From Antedon mediterranea (lineage: Eukaryota > Animalia > Echinodermata): 64,000 nucleotides of DNA. The notes beneath the pieces were generated by a model. It did not search any database. It saw only the letters and a program-made list of their open reading frames with translations, and was not told the DNA's origin. The stretch spans positions 32,166,388 to 32,230,387 of the forward strand of contig NC_092670.1 in the NCBI RefSeq assembly GCF_964355755.1, read 5' to 3'. Positions 24,455-47,588 of the stretch are shown here, one piece after another (position 1 is the first letter of the stretch; every line of letters starts with the position of its first letter). Made by a program: the position numbers and the translations under genes.

Positions 24455-25810
24455 ATGCTGCTCCATGTGTGTCTTATAATCAGTGTGCTCAATGTAAGAA
24501 ATGCTATTGCAGAAGAACGGTTGGTTGAGTTTGATTCTTGTTATTATACAAATGTTTGGGTACAATCGCAGCCTGTGAACGTCATATCATTAAATAAATT
24601 CTACAGTGGTAATATAACTGAAGAAGTGTTACATATAACAAAAGATGATGAGCAGCCGGTAGACAACATAGCTCATCTGCCAGGAAAGTCTAAAACAGTC
24701 AACTGTCACTACTTTCTATCTTACAACGAACAATACGACGGAATATACACATGCCAAGACGATGACAATAAGCAATATGTGATTTCTTCAGGTGACGTCA
24801 AAAAATATCAGCCCCCTGAATATTATTATTGGAGAATTTCCTGTGAAGATTTCGTTCAATATATGACAGAAGGTGATGAAGTAGTAATTACTTGCAAAGT
24901 GACAAATACATCACTGAACAACGAAAACTATAAAATAACAATAGGATGGATCCAAGGAAAACATAGCATTACACAGTCGTATCATTTGAATACTGAAACA
25001 GTTTTTGATCAAATATTTAAAGGTCACAAACAAGGAGACGGTATATTCTTTTATTGTATTTCAAAAGAAAACACAATTAGCAGGTTTGTAAATTCGTGTT
25101 ACACAGTAACAGTAACAGTTTATCATAGTAGTCCTTTTGTAGTGGAAATCAAGCCTATGAACAAACACGCTGTTGGTGAACATTGTTTTAAATGTCAAGC
25201 TAAAGGGGGATCTGGTCAGAATAATTACTACTGGACATTAAATGGACAACTGCTGTCACGGACAGAATACGATGGAAATGATGACCATACACAATGCTTC
25301 AAGAATTTAAAATCTGGTGATTACGTTGTCAAGTGCTTGGTGAGTACTCATGACAAATCTGATGCGATAGAGTTCACTGTCGATAATGTGTTGCCCACTT
25401 ACACGACTGAAGCGACAAATAGCAACGGCCATCTCTATGTCAGTACTATGCCACCAGCAGGACAATGTCACAGTAAAGATTGCAACAAATTACCAACAAT
25501 AATACTGACATTAACAACACTGAGTCTATTAATAGTTGTATTTATTCTTACATATCTACTAAAAAGAAAGTCTGCAGGCGACATTTCACAGCAGTCCGCT
25601 GAAAATAGTCAGATAAACACTAAAATGAGTGTCTTCTATACTTCTCCAGAGACCTGCACCGAAGAAGATGTATATTATACAATTGATGATACAGTTATTA
25701 CTAATATTTTAAATCAGAACAAAAGATGTAAACTTACAACAACCAACAACAGAGAAGGTGGGGTCACGAATGTTGCTGGAGCACCACACTATTTTGTTTT
25801 GGAGTCATAA
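24455..25810 (+). CDS. Receptor C: ectodomain class 1 + HYFVLES tail, 451 aa
   Basis: Signal peptide MLLHVCLIISVLNVRNAIA; Ig-type motifs YDGIYTC, ITCKV/IGWIQG/GDGIFFYC, CFKC/YYWTLNG/GDYVVKC; TM LPTIILTLTTLSLLIVVFILTYLL-KRK; tail EDVYYTI and PHYFVLES*. Confidence 0.88.
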   Translation: MLLHVCLIISVLNVRNAIAEERLVEFDSCYYTNVWVQSQPVNVISLNKFYSGNITEEVLHITKDDEQPVDNIAHLPGKSKTVNCHYFLSYNEQYDGIYTCQDDDNKQYVISSGDVKKYQPPEYYYWRISCEDFVQYMTEGDEVVITCKVTNTSLNNENYKITIGWIQGKHSITQSYHLNTETVFDQIFKGHKQGDGIFFYCISKENTISRFVNSCYTVTVTVYHSSPFVVEIKPMNKHAVGEHCFKCQAKGGSGQNNYYWTLNGQLLSRTEYDGNDDHTQCFKNLKSGDYVVKCLVSTHDKSDAIEFTVDNVLPTYTTEATNSNGHLYVSTMPPAGQCHSKDCNKLPTIILTLTTLSLLIVVFILTYLLKRKSAGDISQQSAENSQINTKMSVFYTSPETCTEEDVYYTIDDTVITNILNQNKRCKLTTTNNREGGVTNVAGAPHYFVLES

Positions 25811-25989
25811 TAAAAAGTGTAAATAATAATGAACAATATACAGTATCAAGACACAGAACATGGCATTCTGATTTGATGGATGACTTGGCACTATAAAACA
25901 ATTTTTTGGAACACTACCGTGGCATCGTTTGATAAGATAAGAGATGCCCAAGATTTGCGTACGCCCGTAAACAAGATTTATTCAAAGGG

Positions 25990-26450
25990 GAAAACATTAT
26001 GAATTATATAATTATAGATCAATACAGGCTGCTTTGCGTATAATGGGTGATGTCAGTCATCCCCTAAATGATCAATTTATTCGAACCCGAAGTGGTAGTC
26101 TCTGTGTCCTTAAGACAAGAACAAACCGATCACATTACGCCTTTATAGCCAACGTCATATATACATTTGATAAACTCACGGCAAAAAAAGATAGGAAACT
26201 GTAGAGTTAACGTATCATTTTGCAATTCTTCCTTTTTAATATTGTATTTTTAATAGTTTTAATAATTTTATGATAAAAGCTTTTAATCTGTATGTATTAT
26301 ACATAACCTGGCTTTTAATGTATATTTGTGTATTTTTGTTGTAATCTTTTGAATTTGTATAGTATATCTTTTTTTAATATTTCATGCCAGTTTCAAATGT
26401 ATTTCGATTTTATATTCCTATGAACAATAAAATAATATCAGTATCAGTTA
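25990..26450 (+). mobile_element. 3' remnant of a LINE
   Basis: Reads DVSHPLNDQFIRTRSGSLCVLKTRTNRSHYAFIANVI, similar to the C-terminus of the neighbouring RT (DETHPLHKQF..SG..TKTKRF..SFVPNAI). Then a T-rich UTR, AATAAA and a short (ATCAGT)n tail. Confidence 0.6.
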
Positions 26451-26616
26451 CCACTGCTTTCTATTATCTCAGAATAGGACTATTAGTAATACTACGACAA
26501 ATATGGGCTGAACAAAAAGTTAATTTGTTGTTATAGACATATGTAAATATGTATGCATGTAAATATAGTGTACGGCATGATAACTATACATTTCAACACA
26601 ATAACAGAGATTTAGA

Positions 26617-28215
26617 TAGTCATAGTCATAGTCATATATACTTTATTGTCCATTTAAAAAACAGAAATGTGATTTGAAAACTGGCAAAATACAAAAATAT
26701 AAAATACAATTTACAAAAACACACACAAAAAGTTAAGAGGCTAAAAATTGTTAAAATTAGATAAAAATTATAGGTTACATTTTACCTTTGTACTCTGGAG
26801 TTATATAAGTGTATAGCATTAGGTACAAACGAGCACCTAAACCGTTTTGTTTTGGTATTAAGTGCACGTAGTCTTATGCCAGAATTCATGAGAGCAAATT
26901 GTTTGTGAAGAGGATGTGTTTCATCATCAATGATACTTTTTACTTTTTTTAACACATTTTCTTTATACAAGGATTCAACATCAGGTAAGTGCTGTCCTAC
27001 TAGTCTAATTGCTCTATTTCCTATTCGATTAAGTTTAATTTTATCTTTTTGCATTGTATTACCATAAAAACAAACATTACAAAAAAGTATTACACTGAGA
27101 ATTACAGAGTTATAAAACAATTTAAGTATAGTTTTGTCAATTTGTAGGTACTTCATTTTTCTTAAAATAAACATCCTTTGGTTGGCTTTGCATGTGGCTT
27201 TATTTACATTATTTATCCAATTTAGCTTATTGTCAATTATACAACCCAGATATTTGTACTCATTTACTACTTCAATCTCATTTTCATTTATAATCAGAGG
27301 TTCTAAGGGTTCTTTAATTTTCCTAAAATCAATTTGCATTTCTTTTGTTTTCTTTATGTTTAGTTTCAGGTTGTTATTGCAGCACCAGTGATAAAAATCA
27401 CATCCTAGTTGTCTATAGCTTGTTTCATCATTGCCAGTAATGTATCCAGTGATGACTGTGTCATCTGCATATTTTACTATACAACATTCATTTGAATTGG
27501 CTCTGAAACTGCTGGTGAACAGTGAAAACAACATTGGGGAGATAACAGACCCTTGTGGCGTGCCAATGCTAACAGTTCTTTTATCAGATAAAATACCGTT
27601 TAGTTTAACATACTGGAACCTTTTTGTTAAGAAATTATATATCCATGAAGTCAATGTGTCGTTTACGTTCATTTCTTTAAGTTTGCGTACTAATGAACCA
27701 GGTTCAACGGTATTAAAAGCACTAGAAAAATCTATATACAAACATCTTACATATGATTTAGGCACATCTAAATGTTGGTAAATATTATGTAAGTGGAAGA
27801 GCACAGCATCTTCAACACTTCTATTACTCTGATAGGCAAATTGGAGAGGATCGAGAAACAATTTGGTCTGATCAAGCAACTGCCTAAGTACAATCTTTTC
27901 TAGGCACTTACCAACATTGGATGTGATAGCTATTGGCCTATAGTCATTAAGTTCCTTGGGATTTTTTATCTTAGGAATAGGTGAGATACAGGCCGTTTTC
28001 CATTGATTGGGCACTGTACCACTTGCTAAACTCTCATTAAAAAGTTTGGTATATATCGGTGCCAACTCTTGGTTGCAGTATTTAATAACACGATTTCCAA
28101 TTCCATCAGGGTCAGTACTTTTACCAGGCTTTACTTTGGCGAATACATTACGCACATCAACTACATTTATGACTGCATTGTTTACTAATGAAGATTCTAT
28201 TACTCTTTCGTTCAT
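26617..28215 (-). mobile_element. 5'-truncated LINE, Rex1/Babar-like, with uninterrupted RT ORF (26782-28215)
   Basis: DYRPIAITS, DPLQFAY, YVRCLYIDFSSAFNT, GTPQGSVISP, KYADDT, YKYLG. The 3' UTR ends in AATAAAG and (TGACTA)3 at 26617-26634. No endonuclease domain. Confidence 0.9.
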
Positions 28216-30482
28216 CTTGAGTTGGAGTGATTTTGTGCCGTTTTGTTTTGCGCAAGCGCAAGATCATGCTTAGAATGAGTTTTATTGACAGTCGCTTTGT
28301 CGCGTGTCGAGAAAATGAAATTATCTATCATAGTACGAAACTAAATGTTACTATTCTGAAATGATTACAGTTATACAATGAAAATGAAAATGCCTAATTA
28401 AAAATGTCAACGATTACTGTTTGTTTTCTAAAAATAACATATAAACCAGTAACAGTATCTGAAAATATAAAACTGTTACAACGAAAGAAAATATCATATA
28501 TGCGTATGCATGTAGTCAGTGCTTTAGATAATTAAAATTTAATTATACAATATATACAATATTTTATTGAAAGAATTCTCGTATTAGATTCCAGCTCAGT
28601 TCGGCCTGCATTTCCGCCCTGTTCGATTTCAGAAGTTGTAGGCACAATGGTATTATTTCAGGTCATTTCAACTACAGTGGTGGCAGAGTTCCATATTTTC
28701 AACTAGATATTGTGTATCAACTTTTCAACCAACTGTACTCATATCAAGTGTGGAGCCATTGAAGGCAACCCGGATCAACGATTGGCCAAAATTTTTTGAT
28801 TTCCACTCCTTCTTGCACGTCCAATTACCAAAAGAATAACAACACTAAGCTCTACTATCAGAACATTAGAAGTATTAAAAACTGAATGCGAAATTACTAT
28901 GGACTGAAACACTTGTGGGAGTCGTCTATAGAGTACCGAACAGTACTGTAGTCGTAAGAGTATATTTAAAATCGTCCAATCAGTTAAAGACGCAATGCCT
29001 ACTCATCCCCGGTATCAACTCATTTGTGGAAGATCTAAACCTTTGCAAAATTGAGTGGACTAGTGATGGTACGGGATAAGCACCCACAAATTCAATTGGT
29101 GAACTCTCAATTGATAACATTTTAAAGTATAGTGTTTATTGTTTGGTAGGGCCCTTATAGGGCGGAGGTGAGGAGGCGGAGTTAATTTAAGGGAGGTGCT
29201 TATTCGAGGGATATGTTAATTTTTTTAGTTTTATTATTATGGTAACATTTATAATCAACTAAAATCCTCTAATAGATATTAAAAGTTGTAAAAAAGAATA
29301 ACAAATGCTTGGTAAATTGTAGATAACAGTGCGATGAATTCTACTACAAATAGTATAATTATGTTATTATCAATATAATACAACATTGTGTGTATAAATG
29401 TGGATGAGCGTTTATTAGATTAGATTAGATTAGGGTTGTGGGGGTGGGGGAATTATTATTCAAAGTGATTTTTTATTGTGGAGGTTTTGGGCGTTTATTC
29501 AAATAAATACCATCCTAATAATTAATACATTATTTAATTTAAACATGTTTTGAAACTTCCGCGACCGAGTGGGCCGTTTCTGCACAAGAAGGAAGACGTT
29601 TAAGATGGCTTGAAAAATGGGCAGACGTATCCCGGTACGAACGGGACACAGATAGCCCACACAGTTATTTCTGCCAGCTTACTCAATAAAACACGGCTAT
29701 CGGGATTTCACTCGATTTTAAACAAAATGTCATCATATCTCCCTATGTAATTTTATAATACTATTCCCCACAATATACTCCGATGCTTTATGGCGTATAT
29801 TCAATTTGATCTTTATTAATCTGCAGTATAATTTTTATATGTTTTAACTACTGTACCTTCACACGCGCGGTCCGATCCGAAAGTAAACAAAAAACTAAAA
29901 TGGCTATAGCCACTAACGACCAATTTAGTTGAAACCAGGAAGTTGCAAGCTGAACCCGTGATCGGTGAACTCATCGTGAACCCGGAAAATACTTGGACCG
30001 CGTACAATTGGAATTGAATGAAAATCTACCGATGAAATCAGAAATTTGGTGTTAAAACCCTTTGCGTAATAATGAAAACTAATGTTATCAATCTACGTTT
30101 CGCAGTACATCTGAGATAGATAAGGTAAGTAACCATGGCGGAGATTTGTCCGGAATTTTTTCCATTGTGGAATCAAATTCAATCAATCGTTCTTCTGCAA
30201 TAACCTTTCTTACACTGAGAAAACTGATTGTCATACGACACAGACTCAGCAGCATTATTTTAAATACTACTTGTTCAGAGTTACATAATAAAAGTATGCA
30301 TGTTCGGGCAAATAAAAACTATTCAATAGGCATACATACATTTGATAAATGAACAGTTTAAAGAAAAAGATTGTTATGCTTCACTATAATTATATTAAAT
30401 GACAATAAAATATTGTTCACTATACTAGTGACAGATTAAATCATTATGTACACATTATGTATTAATTTTCTCCCGCCTATAT

Positions 30483-30502
30483 TACTTCCTTGTGTATCGA
30501 AA
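30483..30502 (+). promoter_or_regulatory. Conserved 20-bp upstream element of receptor D
   Basis: TACTTCCTTGTGTATCGAAA, 114 bp before the ATG. Confidence 0.55.
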
Positions 30503-30596
30503 CTTGTAAATTAAGTTTTTAGATTTTATCATTCGTAAAAACAATACCTAACTATTGATACACATTACTCAGCATGTACTAATTTACTCAACAAAA

Positions 30597-32429
30597 ATGC
30601 TGCTCCATATATGTCTTATGATAATAAGTTTGCTCAATGTAAGAAATGCTATTGCAGAAGAACGGTTCGTTGAGTTTGATTCTTGTTATTATACGAATGT
30701 TTGGTTACAATCGCAGCCTGTGATGGTCATATCATTAAATAAATTCTACAGTGGTAATATAACTGAACAAGTGTTACATATAAAAACAGATGATGAGCAG
30801 CCGGTAGACAACATAGCTCATCTGCCAGGAAAGTCTAAAACAGTCAACTGTCACTACTTTCTATCTTACAATGGACAATACGACGGAATATACACATGCC
30901 ATGATGATGACAATAAACAATATGTGATTTCTTCAGGTGATGTCAAAAAATATCAGCCCCCTGAATATTATTATTGGAGAATTTCCTGTGAAGATTTCGT
31001 TCAATATATGACAGAAGGTGATGAAGTAGTAATTACTTGCAAAGTGACAAATACATCATTGAACAACAAAAACTATAAACTAACAATAGGATGGATCCAA
31101 GGAAAACATAGCATTACACAGTCGTATGATTTGAATACTGAAACAGTACATTTTGATCAAATATTTAAAGGTTACAAACGGGGAGACGGTATATTCTTTT
31201 ATTGTATTTCAATAGAAAACACAATTAACAGGTTTGTAATTTCATGTCACACGTTACTCATACGAGTTTATCATAGTAGTCCTTTACTAGTGGAAATCAA
31301 GCCTATGAACGAACACGCTGTTGGTGAACATTGTTTTGAATGTCAAGCTAAAGGGGGATCTGGTCAGAAGAATTACTACTGGACATTAAATGGAAAACTA
31401 CTGTCACTGACAGAATACGATGGAAATGTTGACCATGCACAATGCTTCAAGTATTTAAAATCTGGTGATTACGTTGTCAAGTGTCTGGTGAGTACTCAGG
31501 ACAAATCTGATGCGATAGAGTTCACTATCGATAATGTAGTGCCAACCGACAAACCTGAAGCAACAAGTAGCATACATACAGGGCCAAGTCAAAGTAAAGA
31601 AGATTATCATACATTTATAATTATAATACTGGCATCAACAACAGTCAGTCTATCGATAGTAGTTTTTATTCTCGTCTATCTACTCAAACAGTCGAGAACT
31701 GCTATGGAAATTCAAAAGAAATGTGACATTATCAAAATCACAAGAAGTCAACAAAAAGAAAACGAAGACATCAATAATACAGACCTTCAAGAACCTTCAG
31801 AGAAACCACAGGCAGTGCAACCAGAAGAAATGACTTTCTTTAGAATAACAGATGCTGATGAGAAACCGTCAACAAGCAAGCAAGTGATATCTACGATAGA
31901 AGAAAACGAACCCTGTAAATCTAGAAAAACAGACGGAAATGTAGAAGATGTATATTATAGCATTAGAGATGATGTTTATAATGATGATGACAATGAACAT
32001 TCAACTAGTAGACAGACGGAAATAAGCCTTGTAGACGAAAAGCAAAGAGATAATAATCCGTTAAAATCTACGATGAAGATTAAAAAAGACCAACCTGAAG
32101 ATATATATTATAGCATTGTAGATGATGACGATCAACATTTAACAAACAAAACAGACAAGAAACATCATAAATCAACACAAAAGTTAACAAATACAAATAA
32201 ACACGTTGAAGTCTTTACAAACGAATGTTATAAGTGTCACAATGAACCTAAACAATATACGAAAAAAGTGAGCCATAAGATACAGTTCAAGATGGCAACT
32301 GAAACAAGCAAAAACAAGGAACTAGAAGACACAGTAGATGACTACATGCAGCCGATCACACAGTTATACAGCAATAAAATATACAGTACCAATGACAGTG
32401 ATGACGGTTACTTAGAAATAATATCTTAA
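30597..32429 (+). CDS. Receptor D: ectodomain class 1 + long DGYLEI tail, 610 aa
   Basis: Ectodomain highly similar to C; TM FIIIILASTTVSLSIVVFILVYLL; acidic tail with EDVYYSI, EDIYYSIV, DDYMQP, LYSNKIYST, DDGYLEIIS*. Confidence 0.9.
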   Translation: MLLHICLMIISLLNVRNAIAEERFVEFDSCYYTNVWLQSQPVMVISLNKFYSGNITEQVLHIKTDDEQPVDNIAHLPGKSKTVNCHYFLSYNGQYDGIYTCHDDDNKQYVISSGDVKKYQPPEYYYWRISCEDFVQYMTEGDEVVITCKVTNTSLNNKNYKLTIGWIQGKHSITQSYDLNTETVHFDQIFKGYKRGDGIFFYCISIENTINRFVISCHTLLIRVYHSSPLLVEIKPMNEHAVGEHCFECQAKGGSGQKNYYWTLNGKLLSLTEYDGNVDHAQCFKYLKSGDYVVKCLVSTQDKSDAIEFTIDNVVPTDKPEATSSIHTGPSQSKEDYHTFIIIILASTTVSLSIVVFILVYLLKQSRTAMEIQKKCDIIKITRSQQKENEDINNTDLQEPSEKPQAVQPEEMTFFRITDADEKPSTSKQVISTIEENEPCKSRKTDGNVEDVYYSIRDDVYNDDDNEHSTSRQTEISLVDEKQRDNNPLKSTMKIKKDQPEDIYYSIVDDDDQHLTNKTDKKHHKSTQKLTNTNKHVEVFTNECYKCHNEPKQYTKKVSHKIQFKMATETSKNKELEDTVDDYMQPITQLYSNKIYSTNDSDDGYLEIIS

Positions 32430-34371
32430 GTGATCATTTAGAGCAATAATAGACAAGAAATATTTCTTACAAAAAACGCTGCTCGCTTATTGAAAAACAT
32501 TTTTTATTTCAAATGTTTTTGAATGTGTCATTTTATTGTCACATAATAGTTATTTTACCTGAAAAAAATGTAATTTAAAGCAACAAATACTTAAATTGTC
32601 TGTCAGAAAATGGTTTTTGGGTTTCTTTTCTTTTTTTATACGTGAATAAATATTATTTTTTTGTTACAGAAGTGAATACTCAATTTCTGTCACTTTAGTT
32701 AATTTTATTGCTAAGGTCAAATCTGGGGGTCACTTCATCACCCTAGATATTTCAATTGTGAAGTATCCTATTACAAACACAAACTTTAATGGACTGTTTC
32801 GATAATAATTCAATGAATATCTGACAGTGAATATACCAGAAATGCTTAGGGATTTGTAATTTTAGCATGACATGTCCTAATAGACTCTTTCCCAGACGTT
32901 TTTTGGGTCTACTGTAGCAGCTGGAATCAATAAATCATAGTGGAGTTTCCATTTTCACAAAACTGTCTGTCCTTAGAACTATAACTGCTGCTTGCTTTAG
33001 CTTCTGATTGAGTAGTCCTAATGGGACGTAGCGGGCTAGAGCAGCAGCGTGAAAAAAAGTTCAGTAATTGTGGAATGATTTATTATTACATTATACAGAC
33101 ATTAACGCATGCTACATTTTAAATGTATAATTAACCAGCTTAAGTGTTACAAGATTTTAAAAACTTTACTATAATACATTTTACTCGAATTAAACATTAA
33201 TCATTTACTATAAGAATAAAAAAAAAGATATTTATAAAAATGTCACAAGATTTTAAAAACTTTATTATATATAATATATTTGCTCGCATTATACATTAGT
33301 ATCATTTACCATATAATATAACCAAGGTTGTCTTATAAATGTATTATTCCTAACTGAATTTATCAAAGAAAAAAGTATGTATTGATTGATTTTTTTCATT
33401 ATCTATGTATGGTGTTGCAAGATGAAAGTTATTCCCTATTGTAGGCATTTACTTTTGCCATTAAACCGGGTACAGTATTAGAATTGTGATGAAACTCATA
33501 ATACTGCAACAAATCATAATGAACTCGCATGAGTACAGTATTATTTATCATAAACATTATCAAGGCGGCCTTATAAATGTCTATAAAATTATGTTTTAAT
33601 AGAAAGATTAATCAAGTTATTAATATTAGCTATTGTAGGCATACGAAATATAATTACCAATGTATTATTTTACTTAAACTATAAAAAAAACATTATTTAA
33701 TTAGTTGTGATTGGCTTACGATATATTACGAAACTGGGATTAATCTCAGCTTCAAACGTAAATTGCGCAGCCAATCAAATAATTACTTTTTTAGTGTATA
33801 TCACTTGTGTAAAAAAAATAATAATTAATATACTGTACAACTAAAATTACTTCTACTAAAAGTAATGAATGATACTGCTACTATTAAGTATTACAGTTTT
33901 ATCTCAACTGTTCAAAGTTTGTAAACATATTTATGAAGGCCACGTACTCTTACATAACATGTTATGTTTCCATTCTGTATTATTGTTATAGTTGTTTATC
34001 GGTTGAAATATGAATAATTCGTACTTTATATAAACAGAAAATTGTAATAATAAAAGTTCTCGTACTCTATATACTTTTTGTTTTAGTTATTTTAAAAGGT
34101 TAATATATATTGCGTGTGAAGAATTATGACTGAAAGGGAAATAAAACAATTTGTAAGTTTTAAATTGTGTTTTAGAAAAATAAATTTGAATACAATATTT
34201 CTATAAAAATAATATTAGAAAAAAACCTTTTATTGTTTGACATTAACATCGTTTGTTATACAGTATCAATAAATCACAAAACTGATGACGTAGATGATTA
34301 TATTTGTGTGTTATACAAAATGATGTGTTATGTGTATATAATGGTGATAAGTTGTTTACTTGTAAAAATTC

Positions 34372-34810
34372 TTATTAGGTGATCATTTAGAATAAAATGA
34401 TCACCTATTGTTATTGTATGAAATCTGTATTCTTTTTATTTATTTCTTTCTGTACAGATTTTGTGTGTCAATTATCTCAAAAATTTAATTGTCAATAATC
34501 ACCAAAATTTCAAAATATATTTAAAATAATTTAGTTTAGTTATAGTTAAGTTTTCAGAGTGATCACTCATCCGTGACGTCATTTATACGCCATTTTGTGA
34601 AATCACATTATCAATAATATCTCCATAATTCATTATCACATGTGAATAAAATTCACTACACATAAACGTCAGGTCAAAGGTAAAAATATTAGCAAATAAA
34701 AACTTGCGCGTTTCAAGGTCATGCGCGGGAAATTGCGCGTTAAAAATTTAAAAAGCTCAAAATTAAGTTTTGATCAATTTAGAGCATGAAATAGGCCATT
34801 TGCGTGTTTC
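34372..34810 (+). mobile_element. Probable Helentron/HINE-like fragment (copy at about 43262-43701)
   Basis: Hairpin AGGTGATCATTT-agaata-AAATGATCACCT followed by ATTGTTATTG and a T-rich tract. Boundaries approximate. Confidence 0.4.
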
Positions 34811-34812
34811 AG

Positions 34813-34880
34813 GAAAAGAAACAAGCGGATCGGTGGACGATTATATGCAACCAATAAGTTACTTAGAAATAATATCTTGA
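34813..34880 (+). pseudogene. Orphan receptor tail remnant
   Basis: Encodes KETSGSVDDYMQPISYLEIIS*, matching the end of the D tail with an internal deletion. Confidence 0.75.
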
Positions 34881-34909
34881 AACTTAATCAATTAAAATTA
34901 ATCGTTCAA

Positions 34910-36560: not shown

Positions 36561-36613
36561 TCGTAGTTAGAGAATCTTATCTTATATGAATCTATAACTC
36601 TTCCTCAATTTAA

Positions 36614-37151: not shown

Positions 37152-37196
37152 TTAAACATAGTTATTATATTATTCGAAAGTTCATCCGAAAAGCAT

Positions 37197-37216
37197 TACT
37201 TCCTTGTTTTGCGAAA
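37197..37216 (+). promoter_or_regulatory. Conserved 20-bp upstream element of receptor E
   Basis: TACTTCCTTGTTTTGCGAAA, then an Inr-like TCAGTT, 102 bp before the ATG. Confidence 0.6.
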
Positions 37217-37298
37217 CTGTACATTCAGTTATATTCAACTATTTGTAGCAACACCATCTAGATTGTGTATTCGTTACTCAAAAGATAAAGAAACAAAA

Positions 37299-38924
37299 AT
37301 GCTGTTTCAGCTTATCGGAATCACTTTGCTTATTATTGCTCAAAATGCTACTGCAGAAGAACAATTTGTAGAGTTTGATTCTTATTATTGGTTGAAAGAT
37401 CAATCTAACCCCCGGCAGGCTGTAAACGTCATATCATCGAGTGAAACTTACAAAATAACTCAACAAGTATTAACGTTTACTCAGGATGATGAACAGACGG
37501 TAGACTACAAGGCTAATCTGACAGACACGTTAAAAACAGTCAACTGTAATTATTTTCTATCTTTCAATGAACAAGATGACGGAATATACACATGCCAAGA
37601 TGATGACAATCAACAATTTGCGATTCCTGCAGGTAACGTCATACAGGATTTGCCACCTGTATATTATGCTTGGAGAATTGCGTGTGAAGAATTAGTAAAT
37701 AACATCACAGAAGGTGAGGAAGTAGCAATCGCATGCAAGGTAAAGCGTATATCACCACTGAAAAATGACAATTATAAAATAACAATCGGATGGATCCAAG
37801 GAAGTAATAACATTACACAGTCGTATCATTTTAATACTGCAGTAAGATTCAAACAAACGTTAAAGGGATACCAATTGGGAAACGGCATATTCTTTTATTG
37901 TTATTCAAAAGTAATCCAACTTCAAAAATATAACGAATTTATAAATCGGTGTTACACAGTGATTATAACGGTTTACCCTCGTCCATTATTTACCGACACC
38001 ACCAATAAAAAGCATGAACATACTGTTGGTGAATATTGCTTTAAATGCCAAGCTACAGGTGGATCTGGCCAGAAGAATTACTACTGGACTTTAAATGGTC
38101 GACTTCTCTCAGAGACAGAGTACGATGGGGAAAAAGACAACGAAAAATGTTTTATAAATTTAACAGCTGATGATTACGTAATCGAGTGTCTGGTGAGTAC
38201 GCAAGACAATTCTGATGAAATAGAGCCCATTGCAGACGATATAACGGAAACCTACAAAACTGAAGCTGGTTACAATATTGATGCATCAACAGGTAGGCCT
38301 ACTACCATGACAGCAGATCAATATAAAAGTACATATAATTACAAATCAATAGTTAAATCAACAGACAGGCAATTGATAGATCATTACAAACAGTCAACTT
38401 TAATTCTAGCAGCATCAACGTCTATTATGTTGATAGTGGTTTTTATTCTCATCTATTTACTTAAACAGGCAAAAGCTGCCATTGAAATTCAAAAGAGGAG
38501 ATATGATGATATTATCAAAATCACAAGAAACCAATGTACAGACTACGAACGCGTCTTTAACATCAAAGAATGTGAAGAACCTTTAGAAAAGACACAACTA
38601 GAACAACCAGAAGAGTTGGATATTTTTAGCATAAAAGATGCTGATGAGAAACCATCAACAAGCAAACAAGTGATATCTACAAAAGCAGAAAACGAACCCT
38701 GTAAATCTAGGAAAACAGATAGAAATGTAGAACAAGATGAAGATGTATATTATAGCATTAGAGATGATGACGATCAACATTTAACAAACAAACCAGACAA
38801 TGAATCTCATAAATCATCACAAAAGGTAAAAATTAAAAGTAAACACGTTGAAGTCTTTACAAACGAATGTTATGGAAGTTTCACTAATGAACCTAAACAA
38901 AATACGAAAAAAAGTGAGCCATAA
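37299..38924 (+). CDS. Receptor E: ectodomain class 2 + DGYLEI-class tail truncated by a +1 frameshift (541 aa; 591 aa to 39075 if corrected)
   Basis: Signal peptide MLFQLIGITLLIIAQNATA, same Ig-like motifs, TM TLILAASTSIMLIVVFILIYLL. A7 at 38907-38913 versus A6 in D moves DDYMQP...DGYLEIKS (ends 39075) out of frame. Confidence 0.85.
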   Translation: MLFQLIGITLLIIAQNATAEEQFVEFDSYYWLKDQSNPRQAVNVISSSETYKITQQVLTFTQDDEQTVDYKANLTDTLKTVNCNYFLSFNEQDDGIYTCQDDDNQQFAIPAGNVIQDLPPVYYAWRIACEELVNNITEGEEVAIACKVKRISPLKNDNYKITIGWIQGSNNITQSYHFNTAVRFKQTLKGYQLGNGIFFYCYSKVIQLQKYNEFINRCYTVIITVYPRPLFTDTTNKKHEHTVGEYCFKCQATGGSGQKNYYWTLNGRLLSETEYDGEKDNEKCFINLTADDYVIECLVSTQDNSDEIEPIADDITETYKTEAGYNIDASTGRPTTMTADQYKSTYNYKSIVKSTDRQLIDHYKQSTLILAASTSIMLIVVFILIYLLKQAKAAIEIQKRRYDDIIKITRNQCTDYERVFNIKECEEPLEKTQLEQPEELDIFSIKDADEKPSTSKQVISTKAENEPCKSRKTDRNVEQDEDVYYSIRDDDDQHLTNKPDNESHKSSQKVKIKSKHVEVFTNECYGSFTNEPKQNTKKSEP

Positions 38925-39679
38925 GATACAGTTCAAGATGGTATCTGAAACAATCAAAAACAAGAAACTAGAAGACACAGCGGATGACTACATGCAGCCG
39001 ATCACACAGTTATACAGCAATAAAATATACAGTACCAATGACAGTGATGACGGTTACTTAGAAATAAAATCTTAAATGATCATTTTAGAGCAATAATACG
39101 AAGTTCTGTAATTGTGAGATGATTTATTATTATGTTATAGGCCTACAGACATTAACGCATGCTACTTTTTAAATGTATATTTAACCAGCTTAAGTGTTAC
39201 AAGATTTTATTAACTTTTGACTATATACATTTTACTCGAATTATACATTAATCATTTACTATAAGAATAAAAAAAAGATATTTATTAAAATGTTACAACT
39301 TTATTATATATATTTGCTCGCATTATACATTAGTATCATTTACCATATATTATAACCAAGGTGTTCTTATAAATGAATTATTCCTAACTGAATTTATCAA
39401 AGAAAAAAGTATGTATTGATTGATTTATTTCTTTATCTATGTATGGTGTTACAAGATGAAACTTTTTATAATACTGTAACAAATAATAACGAACTCGCAT
39501 TAGTACAGTATTATTTATCATAAACATTACAAAGGTGGCCTTATTTAAGGATATGTAAGTTACGTTTTGATTTTTTAGATTAAGTTATTCCTTATTGTAG
39601 GCATATAATAAGTATTACTAATGTATTATTTTACTTCACTATAACAAACATTCGTTAATTAGTTGTGATTGGCTTACGA

Positions 39680-39844
39680 CGTGCTGAGCCTTTCATAAAT
39701 GAATGTTATGTCTGTAGCTTCAATTCAAAGAAACCAGCGGATGCAGTGGAAGATTATATGCAACCCATTATAACAACACATCTATATAGCGACACTAAAA
39801 ACATGGACAAAAATGAAGATGGTTACTTAGAAATAATATCTTAA
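39680..39844 (+). pseudogene. Orphan receptor tail remnant
   Basis: Open frame RAEPFINECYVCSFNSKKPADAVEDYMQPIITTHLYSDTKNMDKNEDGYLEIIS*, homologous to the D/E/F tail end, with no upstream ectodomain. Confidence 0.8.
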
Positions 39845-40030
39845 AACATGTATAACCCAATAATAACACATCATGTGATGTTAAAAGTTTTAAAATGCGT
39901 TCGAAACTTAACGAATCTTATCTCGCAGATTAGCGTTTGAATGGATGTTTGAGGCTGTAGCCTAATCTATAACTCTTCCTCGATTTAAACATGATTGTTT
40001 TTGTTATTCGAAAGTTTATCCAAAAAGCAT

Positions 40031-40050
40031 TACTTCCTTGTTTTGTGAAA
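40031..40050 (+). promoter_or_regulatory. Conserved 20-bp upstream element of receptor F
   Basis: TACTTCCTTGTTTTGTGAAA, then TCAGTT, 102 bp before the ATG. Confidence 0.6.
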
Positions 40051-40132
40051 CTGTACATTCAGTTAGATGTAGCTATTCGTAGCAACAACACCTAGATTGT
40101 GTACACATTACCCAAAAGATAAAGAACCAAAA

Positions 40133-41350
40133 ATGCTGTTTCATCTGTATCTTATTGGAATCAGTTTGCTCATTATTGCCCAAAATGTTAAAGCAGAAGA
40201 ACAGTTTGTAGAGTTTGATTCTTACTATTATTTGAAAGCTAGTCAATCGAACCCCCGGCAGGCTGTGAACGTCGTACCATCGAGTGAAACTTACAAAATA
40301 ACTAAACAAGTAGGCCTATTAACGTTTACTCAGGATGGTGAACAGACGGTAGACTACAAGGCTATTCTGAAAGACAAGTTAAACACAGTCAACTGTAACT
40401 ATTTTCTATCTTACAATATGCAAGATGACGGAATATACACGTGCCAAGATGATGATAATCATCACTTTGCGATTCATGCAGGTGACGTCATACAGGCTTT
40501 GTCACCTGTATATTATGCTTGGAGAATTACTTGTGAAGATTTAATACATAACATCACAGAAGGTGAGGAAGTAGTAATCGTATGCAAGGTAAAGCGTATA
40601 TTATCACCATTGAAAAACGACAATTATAAAATAACAATAGGATGGATCCAAGGAAGTAATAACATTACACAGTCGTATTATTTTACTGAACCAGTAAGAT
40701 TCAAAAAAACGTTTAAAGGTTACCAATTGGGAAACGGCATATTCTTTTATTGCATTTCAAAAGTAATCCAACTTCAAAACTATAACGAATTTATAAATCG
40801 GTGCTACACATTGATTTTAACAGTTTATCCCCCTCAATTATTTACCGACACCAATAGCAAGCAGAATACTGTTAGTGAACATTGCTTTAAATGTCAAGCT
40901 GCAAGTGGATCTGACCAGAATATTTACTGGACATTAAATGGACAACTGCTGTCGGGGACAGAGTACAATGGGGAAGATGGCAACGAAAAATGTTTCAGAA
41001 ATGTAATAGCTGGTGATTACGTAGTCGAGTGTCTGGTGAGTACGCAAGACAATTCTGATGAAATAGAGCCTATTGCTGACGATATAATGGAAACCTACAA
41101 AACTGAAGCTGGTTACAATAATGATACATTAACAAGTAGGCCTACTACCATGACAGCAGATCAATATCAAAGTACATATCATTACAAATCAATAGTGAAA
41201 TCAACAGACAGGCAATTGATAGATCATTACCAACAGTCAACTTTAATTCTAGCAGCATCAACATCTATTATGTTGATAGTGGTTTTTATTCTCATCTATT
41301 TACTTAAACAGGCAAAAGCTGCCATTGAAATTCAAAAAGAGGAGATATGA
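40133..41350 (+). CDS. Receptor F: ectodomain class 2 variant, TM intact, tail lost by frameshift (405 aa); possible decoy or pseudogene
   Basis: A5 at 41334-41338 versus A4 in E gives a stop 14 residues after the TM. The former tail continues out of frame (41325-41876) and has a second, 2-bp deletion near 41870 before DGYLEIIS* (41916). Confidence 0.75.
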   Translation: MLFHLYLIGISLLIIAQNVKAEEQFVEFDSYYYLKASQSNPRQAVNVVPSSETYKITKQVGLLTFTQDGEQTVDYKAILKDKLNTVNCNYFLSYNMQDDGIYTCQDDDNHHFAIHAGDVIQALSPVYYAWRITCEDLIHNITEGEEVVIVCKVKRILSPLKNDNYKITIGWIQGSNNITQSYYFTEPVRFKKTFKGYQLGNGIFFYCISKVIQLQNYNEFINRCYTLILTVYPPQLFTDTNSKQNTVSEHCFKCQAASGSDQNIYWTLNGQLLSGTEYNGEDGNEKCFRNVIAGDYVVECLVSTQDNSDEIEPIADDIMETYKTEAGYNNDTLTSRPTTMTADQYQSTYHYKSIVKSTDRQLIDHYQQSTLILAASTSIMLIVVFILIYLLKQAKAAIEIQKEEI

Positions 41351-43703
41351 TGATATTATCAAAATCACAAGAAATCAATATACAGACTACGAACGCGTCT
41401 TTAACATCAAAGACTGTGAAGAACCTTTAGAAAAGACACAACTAGAACAACCAGAAGAGTTGGATATTTTTAGCATAAAAGATGCTGATGAGAAACCATC
41501 AACAAGCAAACAAGTGATATCTAGAAAACCAGAAAATGAACCCTGTAAATCTAGGAAAACAGATAGAAATGTAGAACAAGATGAAGATGTATATTATAGC
41601 ATTAGAGATGATGACGATCAACATTTAACAAACAAACCAGACAATGAATCTCATAAATCAACACAAAAGGTAACAATTAAAAGTAAACACGTTGAAGTCT
41701 TTACAAACGAATGTTATGAAAGTGTCACTAATGAACCTAAACAATATACGAATAAAGGGAACAAGAAGACACAGTTCAAGATGGCATTTAAAACAAACGA
41801 AAACAAGAAACTAGAAGACACAGCGGATGACTACATGCAGGCGATCACACAGTTATACAGCAATACAATACAGTAACAATGCCAGTGATGACGGTTACTT
41901 AGAAATAATATCTTAAGTGATCATTTAGAGCAATAATACAAAGTTCTGTAATTGTGAGATGATTTATTATTATGTTATAGGCCTACAGACATTAACGCAT
42001 GCTACTTTTTAAATGTATATTTAACCAGCTTTAGTGTTACAAGATTTTAAAAACTTTACTATATACATTTTACTCCAATTATACAATAATCATTTACTAT
42101 AAGAATAAAAAAAAAAGATATTTATAAAAATTTTACAAGATTTTTAAAACTTTATTATATATAATATATTTGCTCGCATTATACATTAGTATCATTTACC
42201 ATATAATATAACCAAGGTTGTCTTATAAATGTATTATTCCTAACTGAATTTATCAACAAAAAAAAGTATGTATTGATTGATTTTTTTTTTTCATTATCTG
42301 TGTATGGTGTTGCAAGATGAAAGTTATTCCCTATTGTAGGCATTTACTTTTGCCATTAAACCGTGTACAGTATTAGAATTGTGATGAAACTCATAATACT
42401 GTAACAAATAATAATGAACTCGCATGAGTACAGTATTATTTATCATAAACATTATCAAGGCGGCCTTATAAATGTCTATAAAATTATGTTTTAATAGAAA
42501 GATTAATCAAGTTATTAATATTAGCTATTGTAGGCATACGAAATATAATTACCAATGTATTATTTTACTTAAACTATAAAAAACATTCGTTAATTAGTTG
42601 TGATTGGCTTACGATATATTACGGAACTGGGATTAATCTCATCTTCAAACGTAAATTGCGCAGCCAATCAAATAATTACTTTTTCAGTGTATATCACTTG
42701 TGTAAACAAAATAATAATTAATATACAACTAAAATTACTTCTACTAAAAGTAATGAATGATACTGCTACTATTAAGTATTACAGTTTTATCTCAACTGTT
42801 CAAAGTTCATTGTAAACATATTTATGAAGGCCACGTACTCTTACATAACATGTTATGTTTCCATTCTGTATTATTGTTATAGTTGTTTATCGGTTGAAAT
42901 ATGAATAATTCGTACTTTATATAAACAGAAAATTGTAATAATAAAAGTTCTCGTACTCTATATACTTTTTGTTTTAGTTATTTTAAAAGGTTAATATATA
43001 TTGCGTGTGAAGAATTATGACTGAAAGGGAAATAAAATAATTTGTAAGTTTTAAATTGTGTTTTAGAAAAATAAATTTGAATACAATATTTCTATAAAAA
43101 TAATATTAGAAAAAAACCTTTTATTGTTTGACATTAACATCGTTTGTTATACAGTATCAATAAATCACAAAACTGATGACGTAGATGATTATATTTGTGT
43201 GTTATACAAAATGATGTGTTATGTGTATATAATGGTGATAAGTTGTTTACTTGTAAAAATTCTTATTAGGTGATCATTTAGAATAAAATGATCACCTATT
43301 GTTATTGTATGAAATCTGTATTCTTTTTATTTATTTCTTTCTGTACAGATTTTGTGTGTCAATTATCTCAAAAATTTAATTGTCAATAATCACCAAAATT
43401 TCAAAATATATTTAAAATAATTTAGTTTAGTTATAGTTAAGTTTTCAGAGTGATCACTCATCCGTGACGTCATTTATACGCCATTTTGTGAAATCACATT
43501 ATCAATAATATCTCCATAATTCATTATCACATGTGAATAAAATTCACTACACATAAACGTCAGGTCAAAGGTAAAAATATTAGCAAATAAAAACTTGCGC
43601 GTTTCAAGGTCATGCGCGGGAAATTGCGCGTTAAAAATTTAAAAAGCTCAAAATTAAGTTTTGATCAATTTAGAGCATGAAATAGGCCATTTGCGTGTTT
43701 CAG

Positions 43704-43771
43704 GAAAAGAAACAAGCGGATCGGTGGACGATTATATGCAACCAATAAGTTACTTAGAAATAATATCTTGA
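43704..43771 (+). pseudogene. Orphan receptor tail remnant (duplicate of 34813-34880)
   Basis: Same KETSGSVDDYMQPISYLEIIS* frame. Confidence 0.75.
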
Positions 43772-43800
43772 AACTTAATCAATTAAAATTAATCGTTCAA

Positions 43801-45457
43801 TTCATTCATTCATTCATTCATAATGGTATATTTATTAAAATCACCTTCACAGAAAAACTGAATTGTGACCCTTTTTTACATTATTAAAAGGTACTTAAAA
43901 TATTTAAAATGTTTTAAAAAGATAGCATAAAATAACATCAAACATTGAGAACCACACAATACATCATATAAAAACATTAAAATAAACGAGCACAACATCA
44001 AAACAAGTAAAAATCTAAATGACTGGCCAAGTGAATTGAAAAAAAATTACCTAACATATTATATTTGATTCTTATTACTTCAACATTATATTATACAGAG
44101 GGATAAAATTATTTTCAATACAGAAGTAAAATCAGTTGCGGTTCCACTGCCTAATCGTGTATGGAATGGAGCTGTTACGATATCTGACAGTCCGGCAAAC
44201 AGGGACAGTAAGTTTGTTTGCGCTTCATAGGTCTCTGCCATATGAGACTCAAACCTACTGAGTGGAATACACTCATCTTGGCTTGAAATTACCGAGGCAA
44301 AAAAATTGCTACAAATTTCATTACGACATACATTTAACTGTATTAAGTTACACTGATCAAGAGCTAGATTATAGTGTGAAAACAGAGGCCCTAGAATAAT
44401 TTTACAAGCTCGCTTCTGGATTCGCTCTAACATTATATCATTCAAGTTGGGTAAGACCAGAATGCCACACAGGAGCAGCGTATTCAGTTAAGGGTCTGAC
44501 ATACCCAGTATAAATAGTTAATAAGTCAACAATTGGCATTTTGAATCGCTTAAGTACTTTCAACATATATAATCTACCATTAGCTTTGCTAAGCAATTTA
44601 GTGATATGAGAGCTCCATTTAAGATCAGAACTAATGTTAACGCCTAAGATTGTAGTATTATTCACAATGTTCAACGGCTGTCCATCAATGTTGACAACAT
44701 GATTAACATTTTTTCTAGAAAAATTTACACTCATAACTAAACATTTGCTAGGATTAAGTTTCATATTATTAACTGTCGCCCATTGCGATAGATCGTTTAA
44801 GTGATTTTGCATAAAGCTAGGTTGTTTGCTAAGACGAGGTTCGACAATGGTAATATCATCAACATACTTAAATACGTCAATCGTCTTATCGTAAAAAACA
44901 TCATTAACCATGGCAAGGAAGCAGAGGGGTCCTAAGCTGGTACCTTGAGGGACACCTCCATGAATGTATTTCCATTCACTAATGGTGTCTAGATATCTAA
45001 CACATTGTGTTCTATCACTTAGAAAACTCATAATCCATGTAATTACAGATGGACGGACTTGAAATGTAATCAACTTACAGATTAATACATTGTGGTCAAC
45101 ATAGTAAAAAGCTTTTATAAAATCAGTAACCACTACAGTACTTTCACTTTGTTTCTTATCAGCATTTCTATAGAGAACATCCATAAGCTTAACAAGATAA
45201 TGATTAGTAGATATCCCTTTACGATACCATACTGGTTGTGGTCAAGGTTGGGATTCATGTCATTTAACAACAAACTTTAGACATGAAACTTTCTGCAATT
45301 TTTGCAAAGTGGTCAGTGAGGGAAATTGGTCTAAGTTTATCCCAAGTCGCAGGATTAGTTTTAAGAATAGGGATAACCACGGGACAACACCGTTACCAAA
45401 GGATTAATTTATGATTGCAGCCAGAGGTTTGCTAATTTTATATGCAAATTCCTTAAT
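43801..45457 (-). mobile_element. Truncated LINE, duplicate of 34910-36560 (RT ORF 44438-45184)
   Basis: The RT translation differs from the first copy at one residue (KML/KLL). Same flanks, so duplicated with the segment rather than inserted twice. Confidence 0.88.
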
Positions 45458-45510
45458 TCGTAGTTAGAGAATCTTATCTTATATGAATCTATAACTCTTC
45501 CTCAATTTAA

Positions 45511-46049
45511 AGATGTATTGTCCCTTGAAACACAAAAAATAAAAAAAAAATATTCTAAATTTAAATTGGCCATTTCAAGGTAATATTAAAGTTATTCACT
45601 TCAAGTCGAACATTTGAGGCAAAAACAACAAGTTTACGTAATTAACAGGTAAATTAATTTGATTACATTTCGTCTAGAAAATCGTCACGATTGAAAGTAA
45701 ACAAAGATTTCAAACCACAAGTATGCATTAATGCATGATGCTAATTAAAATTGTTTACAACTCGTCGCGGTTGAGAAGGTGTTTTCACGCAGATCTTGAG
45801 GAAGTCTTATGATTATCATAGCGATATTATTCTATGTGATTATGTATACAGAGTAGCCAACTTTGACTGCACTGGAAGTCAAAGTTATTTTTTGAACAAA
45901 AAAAAACGTCCGTATTTCGGTTAAATTATTTTTTTTGTTCAACTAATTTTTGGTGAAAGTTAATAACTATTATGATAATTCAAAATGACCCACTTTTTTC
46001 GAAATATAAAAAAAAAATTGTTTTTATTAGTCAAAGAGATAATACATCT
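45511..46049. mobile_element. TTAA-target MITE upstream of receptor G (duplicate of 36614-37151)
   Basis: Same TIRs, TTAA at 45507-45510 and 46050-46053. Confidence 0.85.
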
Positions 46050-46094
46050 TTAAACATAGTTATTATATTATTCGAAAGTTCATCCGAAAAGCAT

Positions 46095-46114
46095 TACTTC
46101 CTTGTTTTGCGAAA
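46095..46114 (+). promoter_or_regulatory. Conserved 20-bp upstream element of receptor G
   Basis: TACTTCCTTGTTTTGCGAAA, 102 bp before the ATG. Confidence 0.6.
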
Positions 46115-46196
46115 CTGTACATTCAGTTATATTCAACTATTTGTAGCAACACCATCTAGATTGTGTATTCGTTACTCAAAAGATAAAGAAACAAAA

Positions 46197-47588
46197 ATGC
46201 TGTTTCAGCTTATCGGAATCACTTTGCTTATTATTGCTCAAAATGCTACTGCAGAAGAACAATTTGTAGAGTTTGATTCTTATTATTGGTTGAAATATCA
46301 ATCTAACCCCCGGCAGGCTGTAAACGTCATATCATCGAGTGAAACTTACAAAATAACTCAACAAGTATTAACGTTTACTAAGGATGATGAACAGACGGTA
46401 GACTACAAGGCTAATCTGACAGACACGTTAAAAACAGTAAACTGTAATTATTTTCTATCTTTCAATGAACAAGATGACGGAATATACACATGCCAAGATG
46501 ATGACAATCAACAATTTGCGATTCCTGCAGGTAACGTCATACAGGATTTGCCACCTGTATATTATGCTTGGAGAATTGCGTGTGAAGAATTAGTAAATAA
46601 CATCACAGAAGGTGAGGAAGTAGTAATCGCATGCAAGGTAAAGCGTATATCACCACTGAAAAATGACAATTATAAAATAACAATCGGATGGATCCAAGGA
46701 AGTAATAACATTACACAGTCGTATCATTTTAATACTGCAGTAAGATTCAAACAAACGTTAAAGGGATACCAATTGGGAAACGGCATATTCTTTTATTGTA
46801 TTTCAAAAGTAATCCAACTTCAAAAATATAACGAATTTATAAATCGGTGTTACACAGTGATTATAACGGTTTACCCTCGTCCATTATTTACCGACACCAC
46901 CAATAAAAAGCATGAACATACTGTTGGTGAATATTGCTTTAAATGCCAAGCTACAGGTGGATCTGGCCAGAAGAATTACTACTGGACTTTAAATGGTCGA
47001 CTTCTCTCAGAGACAGAGTACAATGGGGAAAAAGACAACGAAAAATGTTTTATAAATTTAATAGCTGATGATTACGTAATCGAGTGTCTGGTGAGTACGC
47101 AAGACAATTCTGATGAAATAGAGCCCATTGCAGACGATATAACGGAAACCTACAAAAATGAAGCTGATTGCAATATTGATGCAACAACTCTTCCCACAAG
47201 TAGGCCTACTACCACGACAACGGATCAACACCACAGTACAGATCATTACAAATCATCAGCTACAACAGTAGACCAATTCAAACAACCAGTAACACTCGTA
47301 CTAGCAGCATCAACAGTCTTTCTGTTGATAGTGGTTTTTGTTCTCATCTGTCTACTCAAGAAGAAGTCTGGTAAGACTCCTCAACCTTCAGGAAGTAATC
47401 AGAGAATTACCAATATGAACGTCTTCTACACTTCTAATGTTCCACAGACCAGAAATAGAGAAGATGCACACTATACGATTGATGATACAGTAGAGAATGC
47501 TGGGAATTATTATAAAACAAGCAAGAAAGAAGATGGCAACATTAATGGCGATGAAGTAGCACCACATTACTTTGTTTTGGAATCATAA
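46197..47588 (+). CDS. Receptor G: ectodomain class 2 + HYFVLES tail, 463 aa
   Basis: Ectodomain almost identical to E; Thr-rich stalk; TM VTLVLAASTVFLLIVVFVLICLL-KKK; tail homologous to C (MNVFYTS, EDAHYTIDDTV, APHYFVLES*). Confidence 0.88.
   Translation: MLFQLIGITLLIIAQNATAEEQFVEFDSYYWLKYQSNPRQAVNVISSSETYKITQQVLTFTKDDEQTVDYKANLTDTLKTVNCNYFLSFNEQDDGIYTCQDDDNQQFAIPAGNVIQDLPPVYYAWRIACEELVNNITEGEEVVIACKVKRISPLKNDNYKITIGWIQGSNNITQSYHFNTAVRFKQTLKGYQLGNGIFFYCISKVIQLQKYNEFINRCYTVIITVYPRPLFTDTTNKKHEHTVGEYCFKCQATGGSGQKNYYWTLNGRLLSETEYNGEKDNEKCFINLIADDYVIECLVSTQDNSDEIEPIADDITETYKNEADCNIDATTLPTSRPTTTTTDQHHSTDHYKSSATTVDQFKQPVTLVLAASTVFLLIVVFVLICLLKKKSGKTPQPSGSNQRITNMNVFYTSNVPQTRNREDAHYTIDDTVENAGNYYKTSKKEDGNINGDEVAPHYFVLES

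Follow-up and report, generated by a model that had tools for sequence, protein, structure and literature searches.

Does an array of receptor genes in the echinoderm Antedon mediterranea wire each ligand specificity to two signalling outputs, as paired receptors do in vertebrates? The window analysed here is a stretch of 64,000 nucleotides (NC_092670.1, positions 32,166,388 to 32,230,387), in which seven members of one receptor family, genes A to G, lie on one strand between a BTB-Kelch gene and the gene for RNA polymerase I subunit 2 (Table 1). The original prediction for this locus described two ectodomain classes and two cytoplasmic tail classes in every combination; the coordinates and motifs it gave are all present in the sequence. 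The reading favoured here, to which we give an even chance, is that this is an array of intronless receptors with three immunoglobulin (Ig)-like domains in which recombination joins each ectodomain class to both tails, so that one ligand would lead to two phosphotyrosine outputs. Gene anatomy, tree conflict, breakpoints and relative ages were read directly, and from these we infer history and function.

The members share one layout: a signal peptide (read by eye), an ectodomain of about 295 amino acids (aa), a Ser/Thr-rich stalk, an uncharged transmembrane (TM) helix and a tail. In six of the seven (B to G), a single uninterrupted reading frame runs through the TM helix. The predicted division of the ectodomains into C and D (class 1) and E, F and G (class 2) is recovered by the ectodomain tree, with support of 95/98 for (C,D) and 100/99 for (E,F,G). 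The near-identity expected within classes holds for E-G (98% aa identity) and C-D (89%), but less so for F, which is 81% identical to E and 82% to G; identity between classes is 56-61%. Gene B stands apart: its ectodomain has diverged (43-49% identity with those of C, D, F and G), and it has a very short stalk and a tail of 40 aa with ENEYLIV that belongs to neither class.

The tails sort the other way, again as predicted. Those of C and G are short (83 and 76 aa), those of D, E, F and A long (247, 203, 202 and 170 aa, read through breaks). BLASTP links C with G (E = 1e-12), D with E (1e-53), E with F (3e-86) and A with E (2e-21), and gives no significant match between short and long tails (best E = 0.077). 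In the TM-plus-tail tree, (C,G) is supported at 99/99, apart from D, E, F and A, with a long-branch warning for B. The proposed group (A,D,E,F) stands in its separation from (C,G), but the placement of A, D and an Antedon protein is not resolved (49/66), and B adds a third tail type. Congruence of the two trees was rejected both ways by approximately unbiased (AU) tests (p ≤ 0.002): the ectodomain data reject a forced (C,G) grouping at p = 1e-42, the tail data reject (C,D), (E,F,G) and (E,G) at p = 0.0012-0.0020, and 5 of 5 forced alternatives fall. The Ig remnant of A groups with C and D (94/94; AU p = 0.04 against A with E, F and G).

Breakpoint mapping, the second check of the prediction, agrees. 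In gene E, the last site shared with G is 38245 and the first shared with F is 38260; 98 of 101 informative sites are G-like before the switch, and 5 of 145 after it. Every switch had been placed right after the last Ig-like domain, which holds for E only (38246-38259); in triplet comparisons, the change of affinity falls at the TM helix or shortly behind it in C (25564), D (31652), G (47363) and F (41349), and 0 of 2000 permutations reached the observed statistic in each of five triplets. C-D similarity starts about 45 bp before the ATG, and near-identity ends where predicted, at about 25390 in C and 31540 in D. Ectodomain and tail trees conflict, and recombination has occurred between ectodomain and tail. 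Clustered paralogs with closely similar ectodomains occur as the pairs C-D, E-G and F-G, and the AU tests, the triplet breakpoints and synonymous divergence by region all show ectodomains homogenised and tails distinct.

Leaving E aside, C, D, F and G still cover all four ectodomain-tail combinations, but class 2 with a long tail is never intact as assembled. Breakage as assembled affects three of the four long-tail genes, D alone keeping the intact end as predicted, versus neither of the two short-tail genes. Gene A is interrupted by stop codons and an insertion, its tail is frameshifted near 13498, and its 5' part was not found within the window. In E, an extra A in an A-run at 38907 stops the open reading frame (ORF) at 541 aa, with loss of the distal YMQP/YSN/GYLEI block; F has frameshifts at 41334 (its ORF stops at 405 aa as assembled) and at about 41867. 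Separately, the distal tail of E (38680-39070) switches back and forth between resemblance to D and to F, which suggests that long tails have undergone additional conversion in patches.

The exchanges differ in age. Synonymous divergence (dS, Nei-Gojobori; rough values from 60-175 synonymous sites per comparison) is 0.006 for the E-G ectodomains and 0.024 for the E-F tails, 0.09 for the C-D ectodomains, and 0.22 for the F-G ectodomains with 0.26 for the D-F tails. Class 1 and class 2 ectodomains differ at dS 0.53-0.65, A and the other long tails at 0.56-0.58, and the C and G tails at about 1. The ratio of nonsynonymous to synonymous divergence (dN/dS) is below 1 (ectodomains 0.4-0.6, C-G tail 0.37). 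These values point to no fewer than three exchanges that differ in age, F/G, C/D and a very recent one in E, each of which leaves one short-tail and one long-tail gene with a common ectodomain. Gene conversion had been named as the mechanism in vertebrate families; here recombination stands, but of three ages and with unequal crossover included. Unequal crossover is indicated for E because the gene lies within a 5.2-kb duplication (46 mismatches per 5182 aligned bases) and switches where it does. The matching ages of ectodomain and tail in F would fit an older crossover like that of E, whereas the bounds of C-D similarity fit a conversion tract.

The following history would accommodate these data. 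The split between short and long tails would be the oldest, and the long tail appears old because the Antedon protein XP_071950092.1 carries its motifs HVEVFTNECY and DTVDDY. The split between ectodomain classes would follow at dS about 0.6, and the position of A's Ig remnant offers a hint that class 1 originally belonged to the long-tail lineage. F likely arose as a G-type ectodomain with a D-type tail, C and D would have been homogenised over the ectodomain only, and E would have come last, when unequal crossover put a G-type ectodomain onto an F-type stalk and tail and duplicated spacer X.

The two tail types very probably differ in the partners they recruit, judging from their motifs. The tail of C contains EEDVYYTI; C and G share VFYTS, YTIDDTV and the C-terminal APHYFVLES, identical at 9 of 9 positions despite a tail dS of about 1. 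The acidic tail of D has 11 tyrosines, within EDVYYSI, EDIYYSIV, YMQP, YSN and DDGYLEI among others; its acidic DVYYSI block is duplicated (48 aa extra, approximately 31981-32086), giving two such motifs versus one in E and F. The motif [ED][ED]xYxx[LI] occurs three times in D, twice each in A, E and F, once in C and not in G, and exceeds shuffled expectation in A, D, E and F (p ≤ 0.0008) and in C (p = 0.005). The strict hemITAM [ED]3xYxxL is found in 0 of 8 tails; its variant [ED]3xYxxI occurs in C as well as in A, E and F and is absent from G and D, so that a hemITAM-like motif is not confined to one tail type. Long tails additionally carry YxN and a terminal YLEI or YLDL, putative Grb2 and SHP2 sites.

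Ligand clustering would lead to phosphorylation of tail tyrosines by Src-family kinases. The long acidic tail would then serve as a built-in adaptor through its two or three acidic YxxI motifs, Grb2-type YxN and terminal YLEI or YLDL, and the short tail would signal via the invariant C-terminal PHYFVL. By analogy with known pairs, each ligand specificity would thereby be wired to two outputs. Tentatively, the long form would be activating or adaptor-like and short-lived, the short form stable and damping; that the two tails signal in opposite directions is doubtful. The favoured reading draws its support from the three Ig-like domains, the intact genes C, D and G, the tree conflict and breakpoints, the three short/long pairs and dN/dS below 1. 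The excess of acidic tyrosine motifs over shuffles, the invariance of APHYFVLES, the uneven breakage of long-tail and short-tail genes and the likeness to homogenised ligand domains in vertebrate opposing pairs also count in its favour.

Several observations weigh against it. None of 8 tails contains an activation motif of the immunoreceptor tyrosine-based type (ITAM, Yxx[LI]x6-12Yxx[LI]) and none of 8 TM helices a charged residue of the kind that couples to DAP12 or FcRgamma, so neither mark of an activating partner is present. Matches to inhibitory motifs (ITIM) are confined to D (IYYSIV) and A, and those to switch motifs (ITSM) to E and F (TDYERV), with none in C or G; they do not exceed chance (p 0.08-0.31, 5000 shuffles). 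The acidic-tyrosine motif is common to C's short tail and the long tails, and conservation of tail tyrosines is not significant in any of 5 pairs (Fisher p 0.06-0.31). Polarity is unclear because ITIM and ITSM matches stand in the supposedly activating tail, and because C has EEDVYYTI and G lacks it. By their motifs, the tails do not divide into an activating and an inhibitory class of the textbook kind. Pairwise comparison gives no sign of positive selection on the ectodomains, and 0 of 9 sequencing runs containing part of the region are on record as RNA, so that no expression is shown. In the C/D exchange, A's class-1 grouping gives a hint that the transfer went from long to short, which E and F do not share. 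Finally, exchange partners are adjacent and homology stops at the TM helix, as neutral recombination predicts.

Neutral turnover is the leading alternative, possible though itself not probable. Here, ectopic crossover and conversion restricted to the homologous ectodomain-stalk-TM portion would yield the two-by-two pattern without selection, and E, F and A would be decaying by-products. Since homology between tail types extends only from ectodomain to TM, recombination alone would give this pattern, and the switches do coincide with the end of homology. LINE (long interspersed nuclear element) and transposon insertions throughout the array, the broken long-tail genes, the missing intact long tail in class 2 and the lack of opposing signalling motifs all suit such turnover. 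It explains less well why the classes stay distinct (dS about 0.6) though C/D and E/F/G share one array, why C-D homogenisation begins so close to the ATG, and why motifs have been kept over long times in both tails. A stronger version of the favoured reading, a true paired-receptor system evolved independently in an echinoderm, with a crinoid-specific, intronless Ig family in which selection repeatedly re-couples each specificity to an activating, adaptor-like long tail and a damping, non-canonical PHYFVL short tail while activating chimeras (F, then E) are born and lost on an allelic timescale, seems to us improbable. The label "paired receptor" is earned only in part.

An assembly artefact in part of the array, in which two haplotypes would have been joined in tandem, X and X' and the ectodomains of E and G would be alleles, and the frameshifts homopolymer errors, is very unlikely and would touch only the E/G tandem. 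Nine sequencing runs contain part of the region, and four of them, all consisting of contigs and representing no more than 3 samples, were compared over 36900-42600, which covers the E junction and F. No contig among those listed spans this interval, and the two copies of X plus ectodomain differ by 0.9%, within the roughly 2% difference between the window and run X6 (4/180 and 8/375 letters). Runs X1 and X2, from one sample, are identical to the E-F spacer along 180 and 403 letters and may therefore be the source of the assembly rather than independent. X6 comes from a different sample and study and is possibly RNA; its thin coverage of spacers (20 of 30 bins covered) carries no weight here. 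The X6 contig 38080-38259 has 4 differences from E, against about 20 sites that separate E from F in that interval, and stops at the final base common to E and G; another, with the long-tail stalk and TM, begins at F 41073, equivalent to E 38230, giving the 30-base overlap expected for adjacent 31-mers. These ends describe graph geometry with no bridging contig, among 32 of 5812 pieces listed. They meet at E's fork between G and F, which makes E unlikely to be an assembly chimera and supports the E-type junction from outside the assembly. At position 38164, moreover, one run of sample S1 has E's letter and the other G's.

The breaks in the A-runs fare differently. The extra A at 41334 in F is missing from the contigs of 4 of 4 runs compared; contigs drop minor variants, so an error is favoured, not proven. 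Only X5, where the contig is of D/F type, lacks the extra A at 38907 in E; no deletion is seen in X1 or X2, so the tail encoded by E may in fact stop short of YMQP/YSN/GYLEI. The break in F at about 41867 was not seen among 12 of 57 indel rows. Because the tail of D is unique (76-77% to E and F proximally), C, D, F and G supply all four combinations whatever becomes of E. In sample S1, several further class-2 5' variants appear over 39964-40179 (up to 4 contigs at 40127), so there are either more family members or differences in the second haplotype; contig depths are too uneven for copy counting.

What kind of ectodomain is being exchanged? Ten cysteines are conserved in C to G. A nine-sequence profile matches NCAM2 over profile positions 60-255 (E = 6e-5), Pfam Ig_3 is sub-threshold in 4 of 6 proteins (best E = 5.5e-5), and Atlas neighbours are Ig families and clusters (0.90-0.93). 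A structure model based on a multiple sequence alignment is all-beta, with a confidence score (pLDDT) of 73; its residues 204-287 match Ig domains of MDGA1, Dscam and MuSK at modest Z 6.2-6.9, and residues 105-210 match generic Ig-like sandwiches. Profile and model together indicate three tandem Ig-like domains with the C-W-C pattern and beta-sandwich of the immunoglobulin superfamily (IgSF). Domain 1, placed through the NCAM2 alignment of its last strands alone, is the least certain. A single-sequence fold prediction was discarded (pLDDT 35). No family is named by the top Foldseek matches (complement C3 and other beta-sandwiches; TMq 0.16-0.34 among the matches listed) or by RbmA, whose best VIA Z of 8.3 is at background level; weak matches to three proteins, the bacterial-looking repeat proteins P0011 and P0012 and also P0010, have E values of 8e-9 to 6e-4, cover the third-domain stretch only and were treated as generic beta-sandwich similarity.

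Relatives are few. The only named homologs are the uncharacterized Antedon mediterranea proteins XP_071950092.1 and XP_071957072.1, 33-42% identical and on two different long contigs, plus one 133-aa fragment. By sequence both proteins have the family ectodomain and qualify as true members, and XP_071950092.1 has the TM besides its long-tail motifs. A short-tail profile found no relative among 510 candidates at E ≤ 10 (weak evidence), a metagenome scan for the family pattern confirmed 0 of 157 matches, and YFVLE occurs in 0 of the 20 papers listed. A literature search whose coverage mostly excludes subscription journals returned no description of the family; the cluster is real, paired-receptor-like and apparently undescribed. 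A non-immune family (adhesion, cell-fusion, neural or gamete-recognition IgSF, with tyrosines for endocytosis or actin coupling and tails differing in trafficking) is very unlikely: the best matches among solved structures are NCAM2 and Robo1, echinoderm kirrelL is described as an intronless IgSF fusion gene (PMC8903837) and YxxPhi as doubling as an endocytic motif (PMC2832619), and the top Atlas matches of the D tail are poxvirus A36R clusters (0.85-0.86, a lead only), but divergence from the nearest named relative is rapid, no relatives were found outside Antedon bar the 133-aa fragment, and birth-and-death with pseudogenes would suit recognition receptors better than conserved adhesion molecules.

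The window is AT-rich animal DNA (about 32% GC) with LINE fragments. The insertion in gene A holds a nested 41-nt inverted pair (11556-11596 / 12453-12493) and likely represents stacked non-autonomous DNA transposons. The remnant upstream of D reads as the trace of a lost eighth family copy. A 605-bp insertion lies directly 3' of D (32452-33056) and is missing behind E and F. A very high-copy repeat stands just upstream of E (36900-37100) and also upstream of G; contig depths there sum to >600,000 in run X1, versus about 150 for unique pieces. Tandem arrays occur at 63244-63995 (19-bp units), 51518-51663 (15-bp) and 23943-24188 (82-bp), the last 270 bp upstream of C.

Table 1. Receptor genes, duplicated segments, mobile-element traces and flanking genes of the window.
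Feature	Positions	Strand	Remark
Rhodopsin-family G-protein-coupled receptor, intronless, flanking	931-1872	-	usable synteny marker
BTB-BACK-Kelch gene, flanking	3644-9919	-	usable synteny marker
Gene A, broken	11160-13670	+	Ig2/Ig3 remnant, TM, long tail
Insertion in third Ig domain of A	11438-12900	.	about 1.46 kb; 17-nt terminal inverted repeats
LINE reverse-transcriptase/endonuclease remnants between receptor genes	15552-18061	+	
Gene B, intact	18579-19688	+	369 aa; third tail type
Gene C, intact	24455-25810	+	451 aa; class-1 ectodomain, short tail; TM 346-368
LINE-type reverse transcriptase ORF between C and D	26785-28263	-	493-aa open frame; RVT_1 E = 3e-32
Inverted 90-bp class-1 5'-end remnant just upstream of D	30169-30259	-	signal peptide and EERxxEFDS
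Gene D, intact	30597-32429	+	610 aa; class-1 ectodomain, long tail; TM 341-363
Duplicated segment X with E ectodomain, copy 1	33056-38245	+	
Reverse-transcriptase fragment inside X	35544-36344	-	
Gene E	37299-39075	+	G-type class-2 ectodomain; F-type stalk, TM, long tail
Crossover interval in E	38246-38259	+	G-like to F-like
Gene F	40133-41916	+	class-2 ectodomain, long tail
Duplicated segment X' with G ectodomain, copy 2	41940-47143	+	
Reverse-transcriptase fragment inside X'	44441-45241	-	
Gene G, intact	46197-47588	+	463 aa; class-2 ectodomain, short tail; TM 365-387
RNA polymerase I subunit 2 exons, intron-split gene, flanking	56328-58109	-	usable synteny marker

Known systems resemble the array in different respects. 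LAT-like adaptors have a long disordered acidic tail with several tyrosines, and the transmembrane adaptors SCIMP and LIME1 share such a tail with D but, unlike A to G, have no large ectodomain. The Pfam SCIMP match of D is sub-threshold (E = 7.7e-5, 23.6 bits, cut-off 27), SCIMP and LIME1 are among the low Atlas matches of its tail (0.82 and 0.77), and both matches are likely compositional.

Vertebrate pairs (PIR-A/B, KLRC/NKG2, Ly49, KIR, LILR, Siglec-5/14 and 11/16, CEACAM1/CEACAM3) are clustered as A to G are. Homogenisation in opposing pairs is described as limited to the ligand domain, with old distinct tails and recombination moving tails, as in the array (PMC3210942, PMC2832619). They differ in that A to G are single-exon genes, where exon boundaries cannot guide exchange, and in that both partners here have multi-tyrosine tails without ITAM or charged TM. 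No sequence relationship to them was found beyond the Ig fold. By its sequences, the cluster appears to evolve like paired opposing receptors but lacks the activating motifs expected of them.

Ectodomain/tail mixing has invertebrate precedents. In Botryllus, the Fester family (FF) and Fester co-receptors (FcoR) are IgSF clusters too; FF ectodomain and intracellular trees disagree through intergenic recombination, and the FcoR hemITAM EDDVYAIL resembles EEDVYYTI/DEDVYYSI in the array (PMC12582321). FF tails are described as lacking tyrosine motifs and working with a head-to-head co-receptor, whereas A to G all lie on one strand and have tail tyrosines; FF genes mostly put one tail on many ectodomains, are multi-exon and alternatively spliced, and have a role in allorecognition shown by experiment. 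The Hydractinia Alr family, which has a role in allorecognition, likewise forms a cluster: its type I proteins are unusual members of the IgSF, their domains have been shuffled, pseudogenes occur, and the tyrosine-bearing tails are diverse and include ITAM/ITIM tails (bioRxiv 10.1101/2022.03.04.482883). It differs in having one domain per exon, an Fn3-like spacer and many canonical ITAM/ITIM tails, none of which is seen in A to G; no Alr protein is among the homologs of A to G, which are single uninterrupted ORFs.

The three dated exchanges allow testing whether ectodomain-only homogenisation is selected or mechanical, and the short intronless genes make tail-swap reporters and haplotype surveys easy. 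Such pairing is a hallmark of vertebrates, and Botryllus and Hydractinia offer parallels; if the favoured reading is true, a compact single-exon design would have appeared anew in a crinoid, a deuterostome outside the chordates, apparently with neither ITAMs nor TM charges that couple to adaptors.

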